Positions 1,523 to 17,496 of a stretch of 32,000 nt of DNA are shown in pieces. The notes under the pieces were generated by a model. That model saw nothing but the letters and a program-made list of their open reading frames with translations, was not told the origin of the DNA and made no database searches. Each line of letters begins with the position of its first letter. Within the stretch, counting starts at the first letter, position 1. The translations under genes and the position numbers were made by a program. The DNA comes from Bacteroidales bacterium (GTDB lineage: Bacteria > Bacteroidota > Bacteroidia > Flavobacteriales > Flavobacteriaceae). The stretch covers positions 1 through 32,000 of the forward strand of contig JASMTR010000105.1 of the NCBI GenBank assembly GCA_041694175.1, given 5' to 3'.

Positions 1523-1561
1523 ATAAAATTCAATACTTATTCAGGTTAAGCCATTTTGCCT

Positions 1562-4189
1562 ATGAATTCTAAAGAAATCAAAGCCAATTTTTTCAATTTT
1601 TTTAAACATAAAAATCACAATTTTGTGGCTTCTGCTCCAATTGTGCTTAAAGACGACCCTACCTTAATGTTTACCAATGCCGGAATGAATCAGTTCAAAT
1701 CTTTGTTTTTAGGAACTGAAAAAGTGGAGCACTCCAGAGTTTATAATACTCAAAAATGCCTTAGAGTTTCTGGCAAACACAACGACCTTGAAGAAGTCGG
1801 AAAAGACCACTATCATCACACTATGTTTGAGATGATGGGCAATTGGAGTTTCGGTGATCCTGACCGTCCGGCAGGCGGGTACTTTAAAAAAGAAGCCATC
1901 GAATGGGCTTGGGAGCTTTTAACCGAAGTTTATAAAATCAATCCTGACAATTTATACGTTACTGTTTTTGAAGGATATCAAGAAGAGGGTTTAGACAAAG
2001 ATAAAGAAGCTTTTGAAATATGGAAAACCATTGTTAGTGACAATAAAATTGTTCTGGGTAATAAAAAAGACAACTTCTGGGAAATGGGCGAGCAAGGCCC
2101 GTGTGGTCCATCGTCTGAAATTCATGTCGATCTGAGGTCAAAGGCTGACAAAAAAGCGGTTCCTGCTAAAAGTTTAGTCAATAAAGACCATCCTGAAGTC
2201 ATTGAGATTTGGAATCTTGTCTTTATCCAGTTTAATAGAAAAGCCAATGGTTCCTTAGAAAATCTACCTCAAAAACACGTCGATACGGGTATGGGGTTTG
2301 AACGTTTATGTCGTGTACTTCAAAATAAAACATCTAATTATGACACCGATATTTTTCAGCCTATTATTAAAACTATAGAAAAAATATCTGGGCATACTTA
2401 CGGAAAAAATGAAGAGATAGACATTGCCATCAGAGTGATTGCAGACCATATTCGTGCCGTGACATTTTGTATAGCGGACGGACAGTTGCCATCAAGTAAC
2501 GGCGCTGGTTATGTGGTTAGGCGTATTCTTAGAAGAGCTGTGCGTTATGCTTATACTTTTTTAAACATAAATAAACCGTTTATGTTTGAATTGGTTGAAG
2601 TTTTAAACCAACAACTCGGAGAAGATTATCCAGAATTATCTAAGCAAAAAAAACTTTGTCAACGGGTCATAAAAGAAGAAGAGCAAAGCTTTCTCAAAAC
2701 TTTATCTCAAGGTTTAAAACGCCTTGAAGATATCATCAAGGAAAGCTCGACTAAAACCATTTCAGGACAAAAAGCCTTTGAACTCTTTGACACTTATGGC
2801 TTTCCTATCGATTTAACAGCTTTAATTTTAAATGAAAACGGTTTTGACTATGATAAAAACGAATTCAAATCGGCTTTAGAACAACAGAAAAAACGCTCTC
2901 AATCGGCTTCTGAAAGTCAAACAGATGATTGGACGGTTGTTGAAAATAATGAGGCTAATGAATTTGTAGGTTACGATAACTTAAAAACGACCTCAAAAAT
3001 TATAAAATACCGCAGTTTTAAAACCAAAAAAGAAGGTCAACGCTATCAAATTGTGTTAGACCAAACCCCTTTTTATCCAGAAGGTGGCGGACAAGTTGGA
3101 GACCGTGGACAATTTATTTTTGACAATGAAAATATCGACGTTTTAGATACCAAAAAAGAACACGGCGATATCATACATATTACAAAAAAATTACCCTCAA
3201 ATTTAAAACAGAGTTTTAGTGCTAAAGTCAATGCTCAAAAACGCTTCCTTTCAGCTTGTAACCATTCTGCAACGCATTTGTTACATCACGCTTTAAGAGA
3301 AGTTTTAGGTCATCACGTTGAGCAAAAAGGTTCATTAGTCAATGATAAATACTTACGTTTTGATTTTTCTCATTTCGAAAAACTGAGCCCTGATGAGCTT
3401 TCTTCAATTGAACAAAAAGTCAACACTCAGATTTCAGAACATATCGCTTTAGAAGAAAATCGCAATGCTGATTTTGAAGAAGCTAAAGCCCAAGGTGCAA
3501 TGGCTTTGTTTGGCGAAAAATACGGCGACAAAGTGCGCAGCATCAAATTTGGTAATTCTATAGAACTCTGTGGTGGCACACACGTTAAAAACACGGCTGA
3601 AATTTGGTATTTCAAAATCACGAGTCAATCTTCTGTGGCTTCTGGTGTAAGACGGGTTGAGGCCATTACTAACAAAGCGGCCAAACAGTATTTAGAAGAA
3701 AAAGATGCTGAAATTCAAGAAATATTAAACTTATTGGGGTCAAATCAACAACCCGTTCAGCAAGTTGAAAAATTAATTCAAGACATAGAGAGTCTTAAAA
3801 ACGAAAATCAAACATTACTTCAAGACAAGGCCAAAACCATAAAATCTGAATTAAAAAGTTCTGCTGAAACGATTAATGATGTTAATTTCATCGCCAAACA
3901 AATTGATTTAGATGCCAAGGCTATAAGAGATGTTGCCTTTCAACTCGCTGGAGAAATGGATAATTTGTTTTTAGTTTTAGGCTCTAATCAAAATGGAAAA
4001 GCCATTTTAAGTTGTTATATTTCAAAAAATTTAGTTGAGCAAAACGATTACAACGCTGGAAAAATCATTAGAGAACTCGGTAAACACATTCAAGGCGGCG
4101 GCGGCGGTCAAGCCTTTTTTGCAACTGCTGGTGGTAAAAACCCCGACGGCATACCTAAAGCTTTACAAGAAGTTAAATCTTATCTATAA
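1562..4189 (+). CDS. alaS: alanine--tRNA ligase (carries a 7-aa in-frame insertion, see findings)
   Basis: Full-length AlaRS homology: HHTMFEMMGNWSFGD..YFK, editing-domain HSATHLLH and CGGTH, and C-terminal GGGGGQ. The ORF opens at TTG 1556, but ATG 1562 (MNSKEIK) is the more likely start. Confidence 0.97.
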   Translation: MNSKEIKANFFNFFKHKNHNFVASAPIVLKDDPTLMFTNAGMNQFKSLFLGTEKVEHSRVYNTQKCLRVSGKHNDLEEVGKDHYHHTMFEMMGNWSFGDPDRPAGGYFKKEAIEWAWELLTEVYKINPDNLYVTVFEGYQEEGLDKDKEAFEIWKTIVSDNKIVLGNKKDNFWEMGEQGPCGPSSEIHVDLRSKADKKAVPAKSLVNKDHPEVIEIWNLVFIQFNRKANGSLENLPQKHVDTGMGFERLCRVLQNKTSNYDTDIFQPIIKTIEKISGHTYGKNEEIDIAIRVIADHIRAVTFCIADGQLPSSNGAGYVVRRILRRAVRYAYTFLNINKPFMFELVEVLNQQLGEDYPELSKQKKLCQRVIKEEEQSFLKTLSQGLKRLEDIIKESSTKTISGQKAFELFDTYGFPIDLTALILNENGFDYDKNEFKSALEQQKKRSQSASESQTDDWTVVENNEANEFVGYDNLKTTSKIIKYRSFKTKKEGQRYQIVLDQTPFYPEGGGQVGDRGQFIFDNENIDVLDTKKEHGDIIHITKKLPSNLKQSFSAKVNAQKRFLSACNHSATHLLHHALREVLGHHVEQKGSLVNDKYLRFDFSHFEKLSPDELSSIEQKVNTQISEHIALEENRNADFEEAKAQGAMALFGEKYGDKVRSIKFGNSIELCGGTHVKNTAEIWYFKITSQSSVASGVRRVEAITNKAAKQYLEEKDAEIQEILNLLGSNQQPVQQVEKLIQDIESLKNENQTLLQDKAKTIKSELKSSAETINDVNFIAKQIDLDAKAIRDVAFQLAGEMDNLFLVLGSNQNGKAILSCYISKNLVEQNDYNAGKIIRELGKHIQGGGGGQAFFATAGGKNPDGIPKALQEVKSYL
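1859..1879 (+). repeat. 21-nt GC-rich micro-element, copy A (CCTGACCGTCCGGCAGGCGGG), in frame inside alaS
   Basis: 17/21 G+C in AT-rich surroundings. It encodes PDRPAGG between the D and Y of the conserved SFGDYFK motif, and is 18/21 identical to the reverse complement of 5918-5938. Confidence 0.65.
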
Positions 4190-4191
4190 GT

Positions 4192-4698
4192 ATGGGTTTA
4201 AAAATTTTGTTGTTAAGTGACACACATTCCTACATCGATGAACAAATTCTAAAATACGTCAAAGAAGCCGATGAAGTTTGGCATGCTGGCGATATTGGCG
4301 ATCTTAAAGTTACTGATGCCATTGAACAACACACCAAACTCCGAGCCGTTTACGGCAATATAGACAGCCACGAGATTCGATCGTGTTTTCCTTTACATCA
4401 ACAGTTTAAAATTGATAATTTAAAGGTTTGGATCACACATATTGGTGGTTATCCTAAACGCTATAATCCACAAATCAAATCACAATTAGAAGTCAATCCA
4501 CCTGATGTCTTTATTTGCGGACATTCTCATATTCTTAAAGTGATGCAAGACCCCAAACTCAAACTTTTACACTTCAATCCTGGAGCTATAGGTAAACACG
4601 GCTTTCATCAAAAAAGAACAATGTTGCGTTTTCAAATTAATCATTCTAAAATCGAAAATTTAGAAGTGGTTGATTTTGGCAAAAGAGGTGCAATTTAA
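4192..4698 (+). CDS. metallophosphoesterase family protein (YfcE/MJ0936-like phosphodiesterase)
   Basis: Calcineurin-like motifs: LLLSDTH, GD(IGD), GNID, GHSH. Confidence 0.85.
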   Translation: MGLKILLLSDTHSYIDEQILKYVKEADEVWHAGDIGDLKVTDAIEQHTKLRAVYGNIDSHEIRSCFPLHQQFKIDNLKVWITHIGGYPKRYNPQIKSQLEVNPPDVFICGHSHILKVMQDPKLKLLHFNPGAIGKHGFHQKRTMLRFQINHSKIENLEVVDFGKRGAI

Positions 4699-4719
4699 TA
4701 TGAGTTAGATTTAACCTGA

Positions 4720-4752
4720 ATTATTCAATAAGAATTTTTCTCATTGAATAAT
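4720..4752. terminator. perfect 10-bp inverted repeat (ATTATTCAAT / ATTGAATAAT, 13-nt loop) between convergent genes
   Basis: The hairpin is seen directly. There is no clear U-tract on either strand, so a terminator role is tentative. Confidence 0.3.
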
Positions 4753-4818
4753 AACGAATCTCGTTGTATATAGGTAGTATTGAAAATAGGCTTTTAACTG
4801 ATTATTACTACGGCTGAA

Positions 4819-5148
4819 TTAAATTACTTCTTGTATTTCTTTCTTTAGTTTTTTCAAATGACGATTTAAAATAGCCCAAACTATTGAATTATCAATGCTG
4901 TCGTAGGCGTGAATCAATCTGTTTCTGAATCCAATAATTTGTTTAGCATTATCAATTTGCAAATCTGGTTCAACTTTTTGGAGTTGGCTTAAAGCTTCTC
5001 CAATAATCGCTAACTGTCTTTCAACCGCGCTTTGGGTTTTTAAATCATTTTGATAAATATTGAAATCTGTCATATCAACAGTAAATTTTTCTATCAAGTC
5101 GATGGCCATTAAAATATCAGATAGATATTTTCTGCTCTTTTCCGTCAT
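4819..5148 (-). CDS. hepT: HepT-like (DUF86) ribonuclease toxin of a type VII toxin-antitoxin system
   Basis: RX4HXY motif present (RNRLIHAY). About 109 aa, immediately downstream of and overlapping a minimal nucleotidyltransferase gene. Confidence 0.85.
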   Translation of the reverse strand: MTEKSRKYLSDILMAIDLIEKFTVDMTDFNIYQNDLKTQSAVERQLAIIGEALSQLQKVEPDLQIDNAKQIIGFRNRLIHAYDSIDNSIVWAILNRHLKKLKKEIQEVI

Positions 5149-5452
5149 AGATTAAAATTTTTGTAGAATCTATACTTTTTTTTAGAATAGGATTTTTAAT
5201 AGAAGTGTTTGTTAATAAATCTACTTTTCTCTGAAAAAATTGTTCAAATTTATCCCAAACGTTCAATAAGTTTTCTCCTCGTTCAATTGGATCATCGTTG
5301 TCAATTTCAATTAATAAATCTATATCGCTCGAATCCTCATTAAATTTGTCGGTAATAGAAGAGCCAAAAGCATATAAGTTCTTCACATTGTGAGCTTTAC
5401 ATAATGATAGGAAATCCGCCGTTTTATATTTAATAGATTCTCTTAAATTCAT
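5117..5452 (-). CDS. mntA: MntA-like minimal nucleotidyltransferase antitoxin
   Basis: GSx(n)DxD motif (FGSSITDKFNEDSSDIDLL). The ORF extends to 5494, but the start at Met-15 (MNLRES, 5452) gives the usual family size. 32-nt overlap with hepT. Confidence 0.8.
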   Translation of the reverse strand: MNLRESIKYKTADFLSLCKAHNVKNLYAFGSSITDKFNEDSSDIDLLIEIDNDDPIERGENLLNVWDKFEQFFQRKVDLLTNTSIKNPILKKSIDSTKILIYDGKEQKISI

Positions 5453-5652
5453 AATGCTAATATAATGCATTTTTTGGAATCTGGATTTTATCAACTAACT
5501 GTCATCAATGAGGTAATTGTAGTTGTTTGCTTTCTTATAGCAATGCTAAGATTTTGTCAAAGTGGAGAATTAAAGAGGGTGTTTTGTCTAATAAAGTGAC
5601 TTCGATTTAAATATTTTACTTATCTTTAACGTTAGTAACGCAAAACAAGTGT

Positions 5653-5964
5653 ATGATTGTTTCTTTTCGCTCAAAAGAGACTGAACAAATTTGGGATGGA
5701 AATCGAGTAAAGAAAATGCCGATTAATATTCAAAAAAATGGATACCGAAAATTAAGAATGTTGAATAATTCCCAAAACATAGCTGATTTAAGAATACCAC
5801 CATCAAACCGACTTGAAAAATTGAGGGGAAGTTTAAATGAATTTTATAGCATTCGAATTAACAAACAATGGCGAATAATTTTTAAGTGGAATAATGGAAA
5901 TGCGAGCGAAGTGGGAACCCGCCTGCTGGACGGGCAAGTAGTCGATTATCATTCAAAGAAATGA
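5653..5964 (+). CDS. higB: HigB-like (RelE/ParE superfamily) mRNA interferase toxin (carries a 7-aa in-frame insertion)
   Basis: Typical HigB layout (SFRSK.TE..W.G ... IRINKQWRIIFKW.NGNA ... VDYH). ATGA overlap with the downstream HTH antitoxin gene. Confidence 0.85.
   Translation: MIVSFRSKETEQIWDGNRVKKMPINIQKNGYRKLRMLNNSQNIADLRIPPSNRLEKLRGSLNEFYSIRINKQWRIIFKWNNGNASEVGTRLLDGQVVDYHSKK
5918..5938 (-). repeat. 21-nt GC-rich micro-element, copy B (minus strand CTTGCCCGTCCAGCAGGCGGG), in frame inside higB
   Basis: 16/21 G+C; 18/21 identical to copy A in the opposite orientation. Deleting exactly these 21 nt yields ...NASEVGIVDYH. Confidence 0.65.
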
Positions 5965-6269
5965 AAATGGAAAATTTATCAAATGTGCACCCTGGAGAAG
6001 TTTTACTTCACGAATTTCTTGAGCCGCTTGAAATTACAGCTTATCGACTGTCAAAAGATTTAAAAATACCGCAAACTCGGATATCTGAGATTGTAAAAGG
6101 CCGACGTCGAATAACAGCCGATACCGCTTTACGGTTAAGTAAATATTTTGGAAACTCAGCTAAATTTTGGCTTGGACTTCAAGACGATTTTGACATCGAA
6201 GAAGGAAAAGAAAATAAAGGAAACGAGCTGAATAAAATAAAACATTACGCCGATAAAAACCCTGCCTAA
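5961..6269 (+). CDS. higA: HigA-family antitoxin, XRE-type HTH
   Basis: N-terminal HPGEVLLHEFLEPL..T...LSK.L.IP..RISEIV.G.R.ITADTALRLSKYFG.SA.FWL.LQ is the canonical HigA sequence. Confidence 0.9.
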   Translation: MKMENLSNVHPGEVLLHEFLEPLEITAYRLSKDLKIPQTRISEIVKGRRRITADTALRLSKYFGNSAKFWLGLQDDFDIEEGKENKGNELNKIKHYADKNPA

Positions 6270-13949: not shown

Positions 13950-14906
13950 ATGAAAACTAAATATTTGCTTTTACTTATTACTGTAGGTTTACTTGGGTCT
14001 TGTGTCCCAAAAAAAGATTTTGTCAATCTCCAGACCCGTTACGACAATTTACAGTCACAAAACGATTTGTTAACCCAAAAGTTAAAAGCTTGCCAGAAAA
14101 GCAAAAGCGAATTAACTTCAGATTTTGAAAAAAGTCAGAATAGATTAGAAGCACTTCAACAAGATTATGAAGCAATTTCAGAAGATTATGCGGAGCAAAC
14201 TTCTAAGCTCAAAAATCTTGAAACGTCTTACGAAGCTTTAGAACAAAACAGCAGTGAACTGCTTCAAGCCAACGCTAAGAGAAACCGAGACCTTCTCAAA
14301 CAACTTGAAGCCAAAGAAAAAGCCCTTGCTGAAGAACAAAAACGACTAGGGCAACTCCAAAAAGATTTAGACAAACGCTCCTACAGAATTGAGCAGTTAG
14401 AAAACTTGATTGCTTCTAAAGATGCTAAACTAAACAATCTTAAAAACAAACTCAGTGAAGCTTTAGTTGATTTTGAAGGACGTGGTTTGAGTGTCGAGCA
14501 ACGCGATGGCAAAGTTTACGTTTCTATGGAGAATAAGCTACTTTTTGCCTCTGGAAGCTGGAACGTTGGAACTGAAGGCCAAAAAGCGATCAAGGAATTG
14601 GCTAATGTTTTAGCTCAAAATTCAGATATTTCAGTATTAATTGAAGGTCATACTGATAATGTACCTTATGGCGGTAATGGACCGCTTAAAGACAACTGGG
14701 ATTTATCGACCAAACGTGCCACAGAAGTTTTAAAACTTTTGCTTAATAACGCCAGTGTCAACCCACAAAACTTAACCGCTGCTGGTCGTGGTAAATATGC
14801 GCCAGTTGCAAGTAACGAGACTCAAGCGGGAAAAGCCAAAAACCGAAGAATAGAAGTTGTTTTAGAGCCACAACTCGACCAAATCAATAAGCTCTTGGAA
14901 GAGTAA
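13950..14906 (+). CDS. OmpA-family lipoprotein with long coiled-coil N-terminal region
   Basis: Lipoprotein signal (LLGSC), about 170 aa of heptad-rich sequence, and a C-terminal OmpA/MotB domain (EGHTDN ... NW.LS..RA ... GRG...P ... NRR.E). Confidence 0.88.
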   Translation: MKTKYLLLLITVGLLGSCVPKKDFVNLQTRYDNLQSQNDLLTQKLKACQKSKSELTSDFEKSQNRLEALQQDYEAISEDYAEQTSKLKNLETSYEALEQNSSELLQANAKRNRDLLKQLEAKEKALAEEQKRLGQLQKDLDKRSYRIEQLENLIASKDAKLNNLKNKLSEALVDFEGRGLSVEQRDGKVYVSMENKLLFASGSWNVGTEGQKAIKELANVLAQNSDISVLIEGHTDNVPYGGNGPLKDNWDLSTKRATEVLKLLLNNASVNPQNLTAAGRGKYAPVASNETQAGKAKNRRIEVVLEPQLDQINKLLEE

Positions 14907-14927
14907 AAAGTCTTTGCGCCTTCGCGG

Positions 14928-14948
14928 CTCTGTCTGCCGACAGGCAGG
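14928..14948 (-). repeat. 21-nt GC-rich micro-element, diverged copy D (minus strand CCTGCCTGTCGGCAGACAGAG), intergenic
   Basis: 15 of 20 aligned positions match copy A, with one 1-nt gap; three mismatches are G-to-A. It contains the hairpin CTGCC-GACA-GGCAG and sits between TTYGCG motifs. Confidence 0.4.
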
Positions 14949-14979: not shown

Positions 14980-17496
14980 TTAAAATCGAAGTCTAAACAC
15001 CAAATTAGGTGTAAAACCTAAACCGTTTTGTCTTAAAACGTGTATATTTTCATCAATATCAATCGCATAAAATTGATTGTAAACATTATTATTATCCATT
15101 AAGTTTAATAAAGAAACTCCTGCTAGAGCTTGAATATTTTTATATAACTTAAAAGTATATGTCGAAGAGAAGTCTAATCGGAAATAATCATCAAGTCGTT
15201 CAGCATTGGGCGATTCAAATTGTATTTGTTGGGGTAATTCACTTTGATTTTCAGACAGCAATGTATTGGTTACACCCGAATGCCAATTAAAACCAGTTGA
15301 TAATTTTAATCCATTTTTTTCATAACTTAAACCGGTTGATATCACGTGTTTGATATCTAAGTTATTAGGAAATGAAGAAGGTGATAAGGCTTCAAAATCA
15401 TAATCATTTTCAGACCAAGAATAACTGACCCAACCAGAAAACGGGTCAAAGTTTTTATTCACTAAAACATCAAAGCCTTTAACTTCATAACTGCCGTGCG
15501 TTTCAGCAAATTCAAATTGATTTTGAAACCCTTGTCCTTGAGTCGTGATGCCATCAACTTCTTTATAATAAAAATCTAAGTTAATAAACCAATGAGGTTT
15601 TATAAAATTAAACCCTGCAGAAATTTGCTGACTTTCTATAATAGGTCTGCTATCAGGGTCAGATAATACCCAACGTCTGTTTTCAACCCCGAGAAAATCT
15701 GTTTGCAAATCAATACTCTGTGAAGTCACCTGACTTTTTTGTTCGCCTAAAATTTCTAAGTATAAATCATTTAAAAATTCATAACTTAAATTAAATCTCG
15801 GTTCAATACGGAGTTCATCAAATTTTGTAAAGTGATTAAATCTTCCGCCCAAACTAAGATTAAGCAAACTGTTATCTGAACGGTAATTGAGTTGAGAGTA
15901 CAAACTGTTAGTCAAGATTGAATTTTCAGTTTCTCTAAAAAAACCAGGATCATTAATTTCTTGTGAGTTTAAAATACTGGTTTCATTTAATTGATAACCG
16001 TTTTCAATTTTAAAGTTTGAAGTTAATTGCGTTTCAGCATTAATTTTAAACCCTGATTCTCTAACTTCATTAATTTGCTCTAAACCTTGCTGATTAAGTA
16101 AATTGGTATTGTCAGCGTTTAATTTATATCTTGAGATATAAAATTGAAATTGAGAGGTTGTTGTTTTAGACCAGTTTCTTTCGTAAAAAATGCCAGCAGC
16201 AAAATTAGTTTGTTCTAAATTACTACGTCGGATATTGACTTGGGTGTTTTCAGTTTCAAATCGGTTTAAAGAAAAATCATCTTCGGCATAAAATAGATTA
16301 ACTTTTAAAAAATCATTATCAGTGAGTTGATGTTTATAATTAAGTGTTGCATCAAAAAAGTTGAAATCATCATCTTGTTGAACACTCGGTAATTCAAAAT
16401 TGGTGACCTGCGTATTTTGAAAAACCTTATCGAAATATTGATCATAGGTTGGGCTTTCCCAAAGTGAATTAATAGATTGTCTTGACGACACTTGAACAGA
16501 AGACGATTTGCTTAACGGCACTTCTACGATGGCGTCAATATTAATCAAGTTTGAGCCAACTTCAGCTTTTAAGCTATCTGCAATTGCGTTAGATGTCTTC
16601 ATATCTATTAAGCTTGAGACACCATCGCCATAGCGGGCAGATGTCCCATTTTTTATTAGGCTTACTTTTTCAGTCATATAAGGATTAAATGCTGAAATCA
16701 TTCCGAAGAAATGTGAGGTGTTATACATTTTAATGCCATCCCAGAGAAATAAATTTTGGTCGTGCGTGCCACCTCTAACATTTAAATAAGAAACACTTTC
16801 ATTTCGACTGATAATTCCTGGCAAAGCTTGCAAACTTTGTAGCACGTCTGGCTCAACCAAACCTGGCAACAAACCAAATTCTTTATAATTAATTTCTAAA
16901 CCACCTGAGGCTATTTTTTGAATACCTCGAGTTAATAAATTAGTCAGCATAACCTCATTTAATTCTTGATAGAATGGACTGATATACAGTTTGTAACAAT
17001 TTTGTGTTCTTGAAGTATCAAGAGTATATTCTTGAGAAATAAAGTCTTCAGAAAATATTTTAAAACTAACAATTTTTGAATTTACTGGAATTTCAAATTG
17101 ACCTTTAGCATTTGATTTAAAAAAGTACGAGTTATATTTTAATTGCGAATTGGGCACAACTTCATTTGTAACTTCATTGAAAATGGACACACAAATCACT
17201 CTTTTGTTTGACTTTGGAACTAGCAATATACTATTATCATTTTGTAACAAATACTGAAACGGCGTTTGTTTTTCTAAATCAAGCAATTGTTCTTTTAGCG
17301 TTTTTGCTTCGTTTGAAAACTTTATTCTTATGTTTTTAATTTCATCATCCGCGTAAGAAAACATCACAGCGTACTGATTTTCAATTTTTTTTAGATAGAT
17401 AACCAAATCAATATAAGTAGAGTTAGATTGAGCAGAAGTATTTTTGCCCATTCCAATAATAATAAGAACAAAGAAAAAGAATTTTAAAAATCTCAC
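14980..17496 (-). CDS. TonB-dependent receptor with N-terminal signalling (STN-like) and carboxypeptidase-regulatory-like domains
   Basis: Signal peptide, an N-terminal extension, a plug region (LLPGL ... NVRGG ... DG), a long beta-barrel and a C-terminal F. 4-nt overlap with the upstream FecR gene. Confidence 0.85.
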   Translation of the reverse strand: MRFLKFFFFVLIIIGMGKNTSAQSNSTYIDLVIYLKKIENQYAVMFSYADDEIKNIRIKFSNEAKTLKEQLLDLEKQTPFQYLLQNDNSILLVPKSNKRVICVSIFNEVTNEVVPNSQLKYNSYFFKSNAKGQFEIPVNSKIVSFKIFSEDFISQEYTLDTSRTQNCYKLYISPFYQELNEVMLTNLLTRGIQKIASGGLEINYKEFGLLPGLVEPDVLQSLQALPGIISRNESVSYLNVRGGTHDQNLFLWDGIKMYNTSHFFGMISAFNPYMTEKVSLIKNGTSARYGDGVSSLIDMKTSNAIADSLKAEVGSNLINIDAIVEVPLSKSSSVQVSSRQSINSLWESPTYDQYFDKVFQNTQVTNFELPSVQQDDDFNFFDATLNYKHQLTDNDFLKVNLFYAEDDFSLNRFETENTQVNIRRSNLEQTNFAAGIFYERNWSKTTTSQFQFYISRYKLNADNTNLLNQQGLEQINEVRESGFKINAETQLTSNFKIENGYQLNETSILNSQEINDPGFFRETENSILTNSLYSQLNYRSDNSLLNLSLGGRFNHFTKFDELRIEPRFNLSYEFLNDLYLEILGEQKSQVTSQSIDLQTDFLGVENRRWVLSDPDSRPIIESQQISAGFNFIKPHWFINLDFYYKEVDGITTQGQGFQNQFEFAETHGSYEVKGFDVLVNKNFDPFSGWVSYSWSENDYDFEALSPSSFPNNLDIKHVISTGLSYEKNGLKLSTGFNWHSGVTNTLLSENQSELPQQIQFESPNAERLDDYFRLDFSSTYTFKLYKNIQALAGVSLLNLMDNNNVYNQFYAIDIDENIHVLRQNGLGFTPNLVFRLRF

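Follow-up and report, generated by a model that had tools for sequence, protein, structure and literature searches.

The palindromic repeats of Rickettsia known as RPEs are reportedly selfish elements that lie in frame within coding genes, including essential ones. They are said to be translated and tolerated as surface loops, and those of the RPE-1 type, about 100-150 bp long, are reportedly confined to Rickettsia. The SDRs of cyanobacteria are described, by repute, as dispersed, noncoding and apparently mobile sequences of 21-27 nt, nested in other repeats, and they are said to occur in heterocyst-forming strains, mainly outside genes. We know of no transposase for them. IS200/IS605 elements and the REPIN/RAYT system depend on enzymes that act on single-stranded DNA; the elements have a hairpin with a short, guide-like 5' tail, and they leave no target-site duplication. 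The GC clusters and byps of yeast mitochondria are organellar and vary in length, byps measuring 27-55 nt and depending on ribosomal bypassing. Finally, REPs are imperfect palindromes of 20-40 bp, tagged by GTAG or CGTC, with stems of 5-13 bp and loops of 4-5 nt (PMC3733652). Some REP units fall inside open reading frames (ORFs), where they add residues to the protein, and REPs of the CGTC type have no dedicated transposase (Di Nocera et al. 2013, PMC3733652).

The element considered here, given the working name E (consensus CCCGCCTGCCGGACGGGCAGG), is 21 nt long and occurs twice in the window, that is, in the whole stretch of 32,000 nucleotides that was analyzed. It carries no gene, and each insertion adds exactly 21 nt and duplicates none of the target. 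Copies of E are probably non-autonomous, ultra-small mobile or dispersed elements that are targeted by structure, translated where they fall within genes, and filtered by selection. The pertinent features of the window are as follows.

1556..4189, plus strand: alaS, alanine--tRNA ligase of 877 amino acids (Pfam tRNA-synt_2c, E=2.5e-196; tRNA_SAD; DHHA1).
1859..1879, minus strand: E copy in alaS (forward orientation CCCGCCTGCCGGACGGtCAGG), one substitution relative to the consensus; its plus strand encodes PDRPAGG, between FGD and YFK of AlaRS.
5653..5964, plus strand: higB, HigB-like (RelE-type) toxin of 103 amino acids (Pfam PF05015, E=9e-24).
5918..5938, plus strand: E copy in higB (forward orientation CCCGCCTGCtGGACGGGCAaG), two substitutions relative to the consensus; peptide (T)RLLDGQ(V).
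5961..6269, plus strand: higA, HTH_3 antitoxin partner (Pfam PF01381).
14928..14948, plus strand: intergenic member CTCTGTCTGCCGACAGGCAGG of a sister family whose core is CCTGTCTGCCGACAGGCAGG.

A preliminary description of this DNA had recognized an inverted copy of the alaS 21-mer within higB, and direct comparison gives the same alignment: the minus strand of 5918-5938 (CTTGCCCGTCCAGCAGGCGGG; plus strand CCCGCCTGCTGGACGGGCAAG) agrees with the plus strand of 1859-1879 (CCTGACCGTCCGGCAGGCGGG) at 18 of 21 positions, and at 20 of 24 when flanking bases, three each side, are added. Only these two places in the window lie within three mismatches of the 21-mer. The same description considered a chance recurrence very unlikely, and rightly so, to judge from the mean of 0.00 matches found in 100 shuffles that preserved dinucleotides. 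The analytic expectation, given the base composition of the window (34% G+C), is 1.2e-5, and the two places are among the few 21-nt segments with at least 15 G+C. It also holds that the element faces opposite ways in the two genes and is read there in different frames, that both genes remain open, and each copy preserves the reading frame of its host. Both copies are slightly decayed relics, and with substitutions in each of them, these 32 kb give no direct sign of ongoing movement in the source genome.

The toxin gene offers the clearest view of an insertion. Its product matches PF05015, is followed in the next ORF by an HTH_3 protein, and retains D98-Y99-H100, all as expected of a HigB-type toxin. 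The canonical stop has been lost (TAA to TCA), which produces a three-residue SKK extension overlapping the start of higA, and the C-terminus reads ...NASEVG-TRLLDGQ-VVDYHSKK. The Pfam HigB-like_toxin match ends at residue 86 (position 85 of 91 in the profile), just before the insert. When 5918-5938 is deleted, the protein ends in ...EVGIVDYH, the canonical HigB ending that the preliminary description had predicted from the same deletion. The insert is indeed close to the active-site tail, breaking up the last conserved segment two residues before the C-terminal D-Y-H. In the HigB of P. vulgaris, the equivalent residues Asp90, Tyr91, and His92 are critical in mRNA cleavage (PMC5027501), in agreement with the catalytic role that had been claimed for the C-terminal Tyr and His of characterized HigB toxins.

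Comparison with homologous proteins confirmed the proposed insertion of seven residues, encoded by an in-frame 21-nt insert. The closest HigB relatives are mostly 93 amino acids long and end in ...NASEVEI(I/V)DYH. Seven extra residues (TRLPDGQ or variants) appear at the same nucleotide in 8 of the best 120 HigB clusters, the window protein included, and the insertion is not private to the source genome. The preliminary description would have given up the idea of an insertion if HigB homologues commonly had a loop of this length and sequence here. Taken literally, some do, namely the 8 of 120, yet what they share is the same DNA element and not a native loop.

The event can be followed at the level of DNA through a comparison of carriers (L001-L005) with non-carriers (L149-L152), in all of which higB is likewise paired with higA. 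Filled and empty alleles, among them a syntenic pair (L004, filled, and L149 from Psychroflexus sp., empty), are separated by a clean 21-nt gap, GAAGTRGAAA|TAATCGATTATCA, and alignment of the alleles reveals no target-site duplication at the higB site. The unit inserted in the carriers gives the consensus of E. Alleles share at least 90% identity in DNA, and carriers are interleaved with non-carriers rather than monophyletic; one carrier (P0003) differs from two empty proteins (P0017 and P0030) at only 1 of 88 residues. The recurrence of E at the same site in higB could be the result of homologous recombination among close alleles.

What does the insert do to the toxin? At columns at least 95% conserved among non-carriers, carriers have on average 3.1 changes as against 0.79 (Mann-Whitney p=4e-5). 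The 8 carriers compared include several metagenomic singletons, and the I>V change at the junction is counted in. The changes include Y92N in P0003, W73G in P0004, and R31Y in the window protein. This pattern fits the idea that carriers may be drifting under relaxed constraint, and it is consistent with an insert that probably attenuates or inactivates HigB. A predicted structure of the window HigB, based on an alignment of 56 sequences, reached a mean pLDDT of 59, and since residues 85-103 fell below 50, the model is uninformative on the insert. A sequence search of the PDB with the same protein returned GraT (6F8S) as its only match, aligned only to residue 83.

The second host gene tells a longer story. 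In the window, AlaRS reads ...GNWSFGD-PDRPAGG-YFKKEAI around the insert. An insert at FGD^YFK is present in 35 of 120 Bacteroidota AlaRS fragments, the window copy being one instance of a repeatedly occupied site, and the site is empty in 74 of 80 alaS relatives. A tree of 119 AlaRS fragments requires at least 16 gains or losses: one large clade carries decayed copies in nearly all its members, and another dozen or so filled tips are dispersed among empty ones. The exact consensus lies at this site in a Chitinophagaceae MAG (L126), a Bacteroidales MAG (L233), and a third locus (L234), besides the copies in the window (one mismatch) and in Arenibacter (four mismatches). The wobble positions that flank these copies differ (GGA GAC, GGC GAT, GGG GAT, GGT GAT), which rules out co-transferred flanks as the origin of copies at the same site. 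Arranged by degree of decay, the alaS copies carry 0, 0, 0, 1, 4, 4, 10, 14, and 16 mismatches but always measure exactly 21 nt, and their peptides move away from PARPAGG by way of PASPEGG and PNAPEEG to more distant forms (PANPSGG is also seen). Since decayed copies keep their length while their peptides drift, they must have been translated and then have evolved as an ordinary loop of seven residues. The alaS copy in the window must be compatible with the function of AlaRS. Every stage is on view at this site, beginning with a fresh, GC-rich copy (PARPAGG) and ending with an AT-rich loop that has been fully assimilated. That one codon boundary of an essential gene has been filled repeatedly recalls the homing of introns and inteins, though without an encoded enzyme.

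E is by no means confined to these two genes. At least 120 loci in genomes (one per GTDB species) match the E pattern, and viral contigs, scanned with the pattern CCCGCCTGCYGGACGGNCARG, contain 23 matching loci. Among the matches listed, 151 of 172 E copies are identical to the consensus. Tallied by record title, the genome loci among the matches listed include about 55 from Bacteroidota, 17 from CPR/Patescibacteria, 8 from Ignavibacteria/Chlorobi, 6 from Planctomycetota (Scalindua and Brocadiaceae among them), and 4 from Nitrospirota, with others from Chloroflexia, Elusimicrobia, Omnitrophota, Marinimicrobia, and a few Proteobacteria. None of the matches listed from the 120 or more genome loci comes from Cyanobacteria. 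Collections of cultured phages and plasmids contain almost no E, and what they do contain is mostly partial matches in GC-rich records of Streptomyces or Halorubrum. The sources of E comprise isolate genomes (those of Flavivirga sp. 57AJ16 and Mucilaginibacter sp. PPCGB 2223, for instance), complete genomes such as LT629302.1, and MAGs from many assemblers and sequencing centers. At the other extreme is a MAG from a termite gut (Th196P1bin11, WRKG01, labeled Bacillota), which is saturated with E: 10 exact copies lie within one stretch of 14 kb, and there are four in one ORF of about 1,054-1,059 amino acids. The E-rich termite contigs consist of prophages, with terminase, portal, and tail-sheath genes, and of host genes.

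The proteins that contain E include AlaRS, HigB, LeuRS (confirmed by Pfam), phage tail sheath, and terminase, as well as a putative MetRS, so called from its resemblance by eye. One protein (L144) carries three exact copies at the same position (GAT G^GA AAA) of three diverged Reg_prop repeats, while the remaining propeller repeats of the protein are empty. The recurrence at one site here and in alaS could be the work of a selective filter. Two loci (L075 and L133), where the flanks of E resemble D-arm and T-arm sequences, were considered as interrupted tRNA genes, but ARAGORN and Rfam call no gene at either, even after E has been deleted. The literature searched has no match to the 21-mer or to its six peptides, and keyword searches returned only general work on REPs, RPEs, and organellar elements.

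Nor did the surroundings of E point to a partner. An all-against-all BLASTP comparison of 1851 flanking ORFs, from about 1 Mb of flanking DNA, identified no recurrent neighbor gene. Pfam and PHROGs assigned 77 ORFs from the E-rich termite MAG to prophage and housekeeping genes among the best 25 families listed, and no Y1 family was among the best 25 Pfam families.

Perhaps nothing moves any longer. According to this explanation, which we consider unlikely, E is an immobile fossil: its insertions are old and vertically inherited, spread by recombination or gene conversion and sometimes refreshed by ectopic conversion, in which case the copies in higB and alaS would not attest to recent transposition, nor would recurrence at a site signify targeting. 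The one or two substitutions in the window copies would be natural for a fossil, as would the large AlaRS clade, filled almost throughout with decayed sequences, and the higB alleles, with their identity of at least 90%, are close enough for homologous recombination. The lack of a transposase among the 1851 flanking ORFs and the best 25 Pfam families of the E-rich MAG speaks in the same direction. However, the exact consensus appears in alaS genes of different classes despite diverged synonymous sites on either side. The genomes concerned have a GC content of 34-41%, in which GC-rich codons would change, and a GC-rich 21-mer in alaS therefore cannot have persisted unchanged by descent. A fossil would also require precise loss to have been very frequent, because 74 of 80 alaS relatives are empty. 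Lastly, nested copies and 10 exact copies in 14 kb of prophage DNA indicate that E has multiplied recently.

Alternatively, E may be kept by selection. Near identity in different phyla is not what one usually sees in a non-autonomous element, and it could point to a function in the host, or owe part of its extent to MAG contigs that have been binned wrongly. A functional motif, present in genes by virtue of what it does and not through selfish spread, might be a hairpin in DNA or RNA to which a conserved protein binds, a signal for translational pausing or mRNA stability, or a site for recombination or replication. Most copies listed match the consensus exactly, even in distant phyla, the same sites recur, and the hairpin is stable: as single-stranded DNA, the consensus forms a 4-nt tail, a stem of 6 bp (CCTGCC/GGCAGG), and a 5-nt loop, at -6.7 kcal/mol. 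In its full register, E is an imperfect 8-5-8 palindrome, and a subfamily, CCTGCCTGCCGGACAGGCAGG, in which C3>T and G15>A occur jointly, forms a perfect 8-5-8 hairpin at -8.9 kcal/mol. Against a host function, other variation in E is mainly decay of the C>T and G>A kinds, with no compensatory pairing in the 6-bp stem. Moreover, E occurs in both orientations, in six frames, in unrelated genes, in structural genes of prophages, and in intergenic DNA, it is absent from most orthologues, and the nesting of copy within copy is typical of selfish insertion. On balance, a host function is quite improbable as the reason for the presence of E.

The sister family occupies the same loci as E but has been seen mostly outside long ORFs. 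Its core of 19-20 nt recurs in 17 other places within E-bearing loci, and the member in the window sits between convergent ORFs (13950-14906 on the plus strand and 14980-17496 on the minus strand).

The consensus of E, on inspection, is free of stop codons in all six frames, and its length is 3x7. In low-GC loci, 71 of 135 copies lie in clear long ORFs, where all six frames are used: RLPDGQ 24 times, PARPAGG 17, PPAGRAG 16, LPVRQAG 7, PACRTGR 5, and CPSGRR 2. An element translatable in several frames, as had been surmised from the two window copies, is what these figures describe. From the uneven counts (5 and 2 at the bottom), both of the frames that contain Cys are depleted, and since identical DNA is read in six frames, convergence at the level of protein is ruled out. 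With no stop and a length divisible by three, the coding copies are translated as a loop of seven residues rich in Pro, Gly, Ala, and Arg; the host protein gains seven amino acids and is not broken.

Translation would be beside the point if E were removed or skipped at the level of RNA or protein synthesis, as a mini-intron or in the manner of a byp, so that HigB and AlaRS were made without the seven residues. A GC-rich hairpin in an AT-rich genome does bear a superficial resemblance to mitochondrial byps and GC clusters. Against removal stand a length that is always 3n, frames free of stops, the depletion of Cys-containing frames, and the occurrence of both orientations relative to transcription. 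Old copies in alaS, their hairpin gone, keep their 21 nt and a peptide resembling P-A-x-P-x-x-G, as expected only if they are translated, and removal or bypass must be judged very improbable. As for E being an artefact (from adapters, assembly, or chimeras), a coincidence, or a native GC-rich loop, nothing beyond its short length favors the idea, which can safely be dismissed in view of a chance expectation of about 1e-5, the mixture of isolates and MAGs from many assemblers and centers, and copies that have acquired substitutions and been inherited at orthologous sites.

To return to a mobile or dispersed element filtered by selection, the sites it occupies are not a random sample. E is found nested within E at its center, positions 10-12 (CCCGCCTGCCG^GACGGGCAGG), and also within related palindromes. 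When empty sites were reconstructed, 9.6% placed the insertion point in the loop of a perfect stem of 6 bp or more, compared with 1.9% of controls (Fisher p=4e-5); examples of such targets are CACCGTCATA^AATGACGGTG and TTCGGATTTTAA^AATCCGAA. Junctions are non-random and polar: over 134 sites, A^T was counted 38 times, G^G 28 times (14 of them CG^GA), and C^C once. Preferences in the flanks are weak (A or G at -1 in 79%, T or G at +1 in 71%, A at +2 in 52%), no conserved sequence is evident at -5 to -2, and the logo of the flanks is low in information. In one cluster of co-oriented genes (L027), the two orientations of E stand at 5:5. Recurrent sites and nesting, taken together, make some target preference likely. 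No stable hairpin was found at the higB and alaS target sites, however, and structure targeting therefore fails to explain the two sites in the window.

How might so small a sequence move? A trans-acting activity may copy E, one whose substrate is DNA that is transiently single-stranded or folded into a hairpin. A candidate would be a nuclease or recombinase specific for hairpins, for example one of the HUH/Y1-like type. No enzyme would be needed if copying occurred through template switching at the replication fork, onto an ectopic hairpin, a process that would work in any phylum. Selection would then purge those insertions that damage proteins, and the survivors would be seen at permissive or preferred sites, such as FGD^YFK in alaS and the C-terminal strand of HigB. 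Copies in coding regions are translated and later decay like ordinary coding sequence.

One may go further and suppose that E is the smallest active bacterial mobile element yet, a noncoding "nano-transposon" of 21 nt that crosses phyla, homes to hairpin loops and a few conserved coding sites (FGD^YFK in alaS, for example), and is built, through its 3n length and stop-free frames, to survive translation. This stronger supposition is possible though doubtful. If true, it would mean that E is spread by a universal host process or by a widespread hairpin-specific enzyme, and that E serves quite generally as a source of seven-residue loops in proteins and of toxins that have been attenuated. If E is mobile at all, the lower size limit of transposable DNA would come down to a single hairpin of 21 nt, and one would have to ask what machinery copies it into the hairpin loops of Flavobacteriia, CPR, and anammox Planctomycetes alike. 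E is also a traceable source of insertions in proteins. In practical terms, its copies can pass for lineage-specific "signature indels" and so inflate apparent protein novelty, and they can weaken toxin-antitoxin modules.

Of the systems already described, REPs come to mind first, because E too is a small, GC-rich, imperfect palindrome with an unpaired tetranucleotide at one end. The size and fold are those of a REP (21 nt, a 4-nt tail, a 6-bp stem, a 5-nt loop), but the tag is not: the unpaired end of E is CCCG in place of GTAG or CGTC, and a 3-nt tail of the CCA type is lacking. CGTC occurs in E only internally and on the reverse strand. REPs are mainly extragenic, whereas at least half of the E copies in low-GC loci (71 of 135) are intragenic. 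REPs often form inverted dimers (REPINs or BIMEs), whereas E is found singly or nested and not head-to-head. Families of REPs are specific to a species or genus, whereas one consensus of E extends across many phyla. The length of E, exactly 3n, is a further difference.

The two systems noted for entering genes or for their small size each share some traits with E. Like RPEs, E is inserted in frame in functional genes (alaS, higB, and those for LeuRS, phage sheath, and terminase). An RPE, however, is said to measure about 100-150 bp and to be found in Rickettsia only, whereas E, with its 21 nt, is found in many phyla, nests within itself, and has refilled the same sites in independent lineages. 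SDRs are matched by E in size (21 nt), in dispersal, with sites polymorphic between filled and empty, and in the nesting of copies. SDRs are not known to have a stop-free length of 3n, to be read in frame inside genes, or to range over many phyla as E does.

For a mechanism, the best analogy is to IS200/IS605 and REPIN/RAYT, which E resembles in its hairpin with a short 5' tail and in the absence of a duplication. Sites of E nonetheless lack the fixed tetra- or pentanucleotide found 5' of the insertion point of IS200/IS605, no Y1 or RAYT gene was seen beside E copies, where no neighbor recurs among the 1851 flanking ORFs and no Y1 family is among the best 25 Pfam families of the E-rich MAG, and a single hairpin of 21 nt is far below the two-ended minimum of the elements that these enzymes mobilize. 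MITEs, defined by terminal inverted repeats and a target-site duplication over some 50-500 bp, differ from E in its 21 nt and in the clean junction at higB. The GC clusters and byps of yeast likewise move into AT-rich genomes, coding regions included, as short inserts that are rich in GC and fold into hairpins, but E is found in bacteria, keeps to 21 nt, and is translated, unlike byps.

The closest known kinds are thus intragenic REPs, the RPEs of Rickettsia, and the SDRs of cyanobacteria, and the definition of each leaves E outside. What sets E apart is its combination of minimal size, a stop-free design of 3n nucleotides, spread across phyla, and repeated occupation of the same coding sites.

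The canonical stop codon of higB, TAA in relatives, is replaced by TCA in the window (5950-5964), so that HigB is extended by SKK and now terminates at a TGA that overlaps the start of higA (ATGA). Directly upstream of higBA lies a second pair of genes:

Window 4819-5494, minus strand: second toxin-antitoxin pair, HepT-like RNase (PF01934) and MNT-type nucleotidyltransferase (PF01909).

The adjoining pairs thus form a small toxin-antitoxin cluster beside alaS. The higBA module, both with E, the 21-nt GC-rich hairpin repeat (L004), and without it (L149, from Psychroflexus sp.), is syntenic with an unrelated second HigB_toxin (PF09907) pair just upstream, and a PF09907 toxin pair also lies directly upstream of the E-bearing alaS of L233, a Bacteroidales MAG.

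The window carries, in addition, an intergenic block flanked on both sides by a direct repeat of TTGCG:

Window 14916-14948: GC-rich block made up of GCGCCTTCGCGG and then CTCTGTCTGCCGACAGGCAGG.

The latter sequence belongs to a sister repeat family with the core CCTGTCTGCCGACAGGCAGG, whose members are mostly intergenic and occur alongside E in other genomes.

E also lies within other repeats. In Flavivirga, Muricauda, and other Flavobacteriaceae (L040, L090, L072, L065, L137, L088), it sits inside another intergenic repeat of the hairpin type, at the same position (…GAGCG^NAGTCGA…). Either the two constitute a composite that spreads as a single unit or the loop is a favoured target. Several other copies (L114, L130, L143, L033, L142, L135, L054) are found exactly mid-way in short tandem repeats with a 7-nt unit, such as (TTTTCAA)n, (TATTGAA)n, (GAAACTG)n, and (AGTTATG)n, so that an identical heptamer stands on either side of E. 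These heptamers could be a preferred target, or they could reflect duplication linked to insertion. The repeats of one protein also carry E:

L144 (Sphingobacteriaceae MAG DATLXK010000007) 4360-5436: Reg_prop (two-component regulator propeller) protein.

Three diverged repeats of this protein each carry an exact copy of E at the homologous position, RYD-G^G-K, and a fourth element, the variant CCTGCCTACCGGACAGGCAGG, comes immediately past the second copy.

Two further copies lie within fragments that resemble parts of tRNAs:

L133 540-620: E within a T-arm/acceptor-like fragment, between tRNA-Ala and SRP RNA.
L075 4550-4620: E within a D-arm-like fragment, in a CPR tRNA cluster.

Neither ARAGORN nor Rfam called a gene in these two fragments, whether E was present or removed.

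The density of E and its variants is extreme in a MAG from termite gut, 'Bacillota bacterium Th196P1bin11' (L027, L026, L017, L009, L010, L016), where they occur about once per 1-1.5 kb, both in host genes and in the structural genes of prophages (terminase, portal, and tail sheath). Studies of E would find a natural model in this genome.
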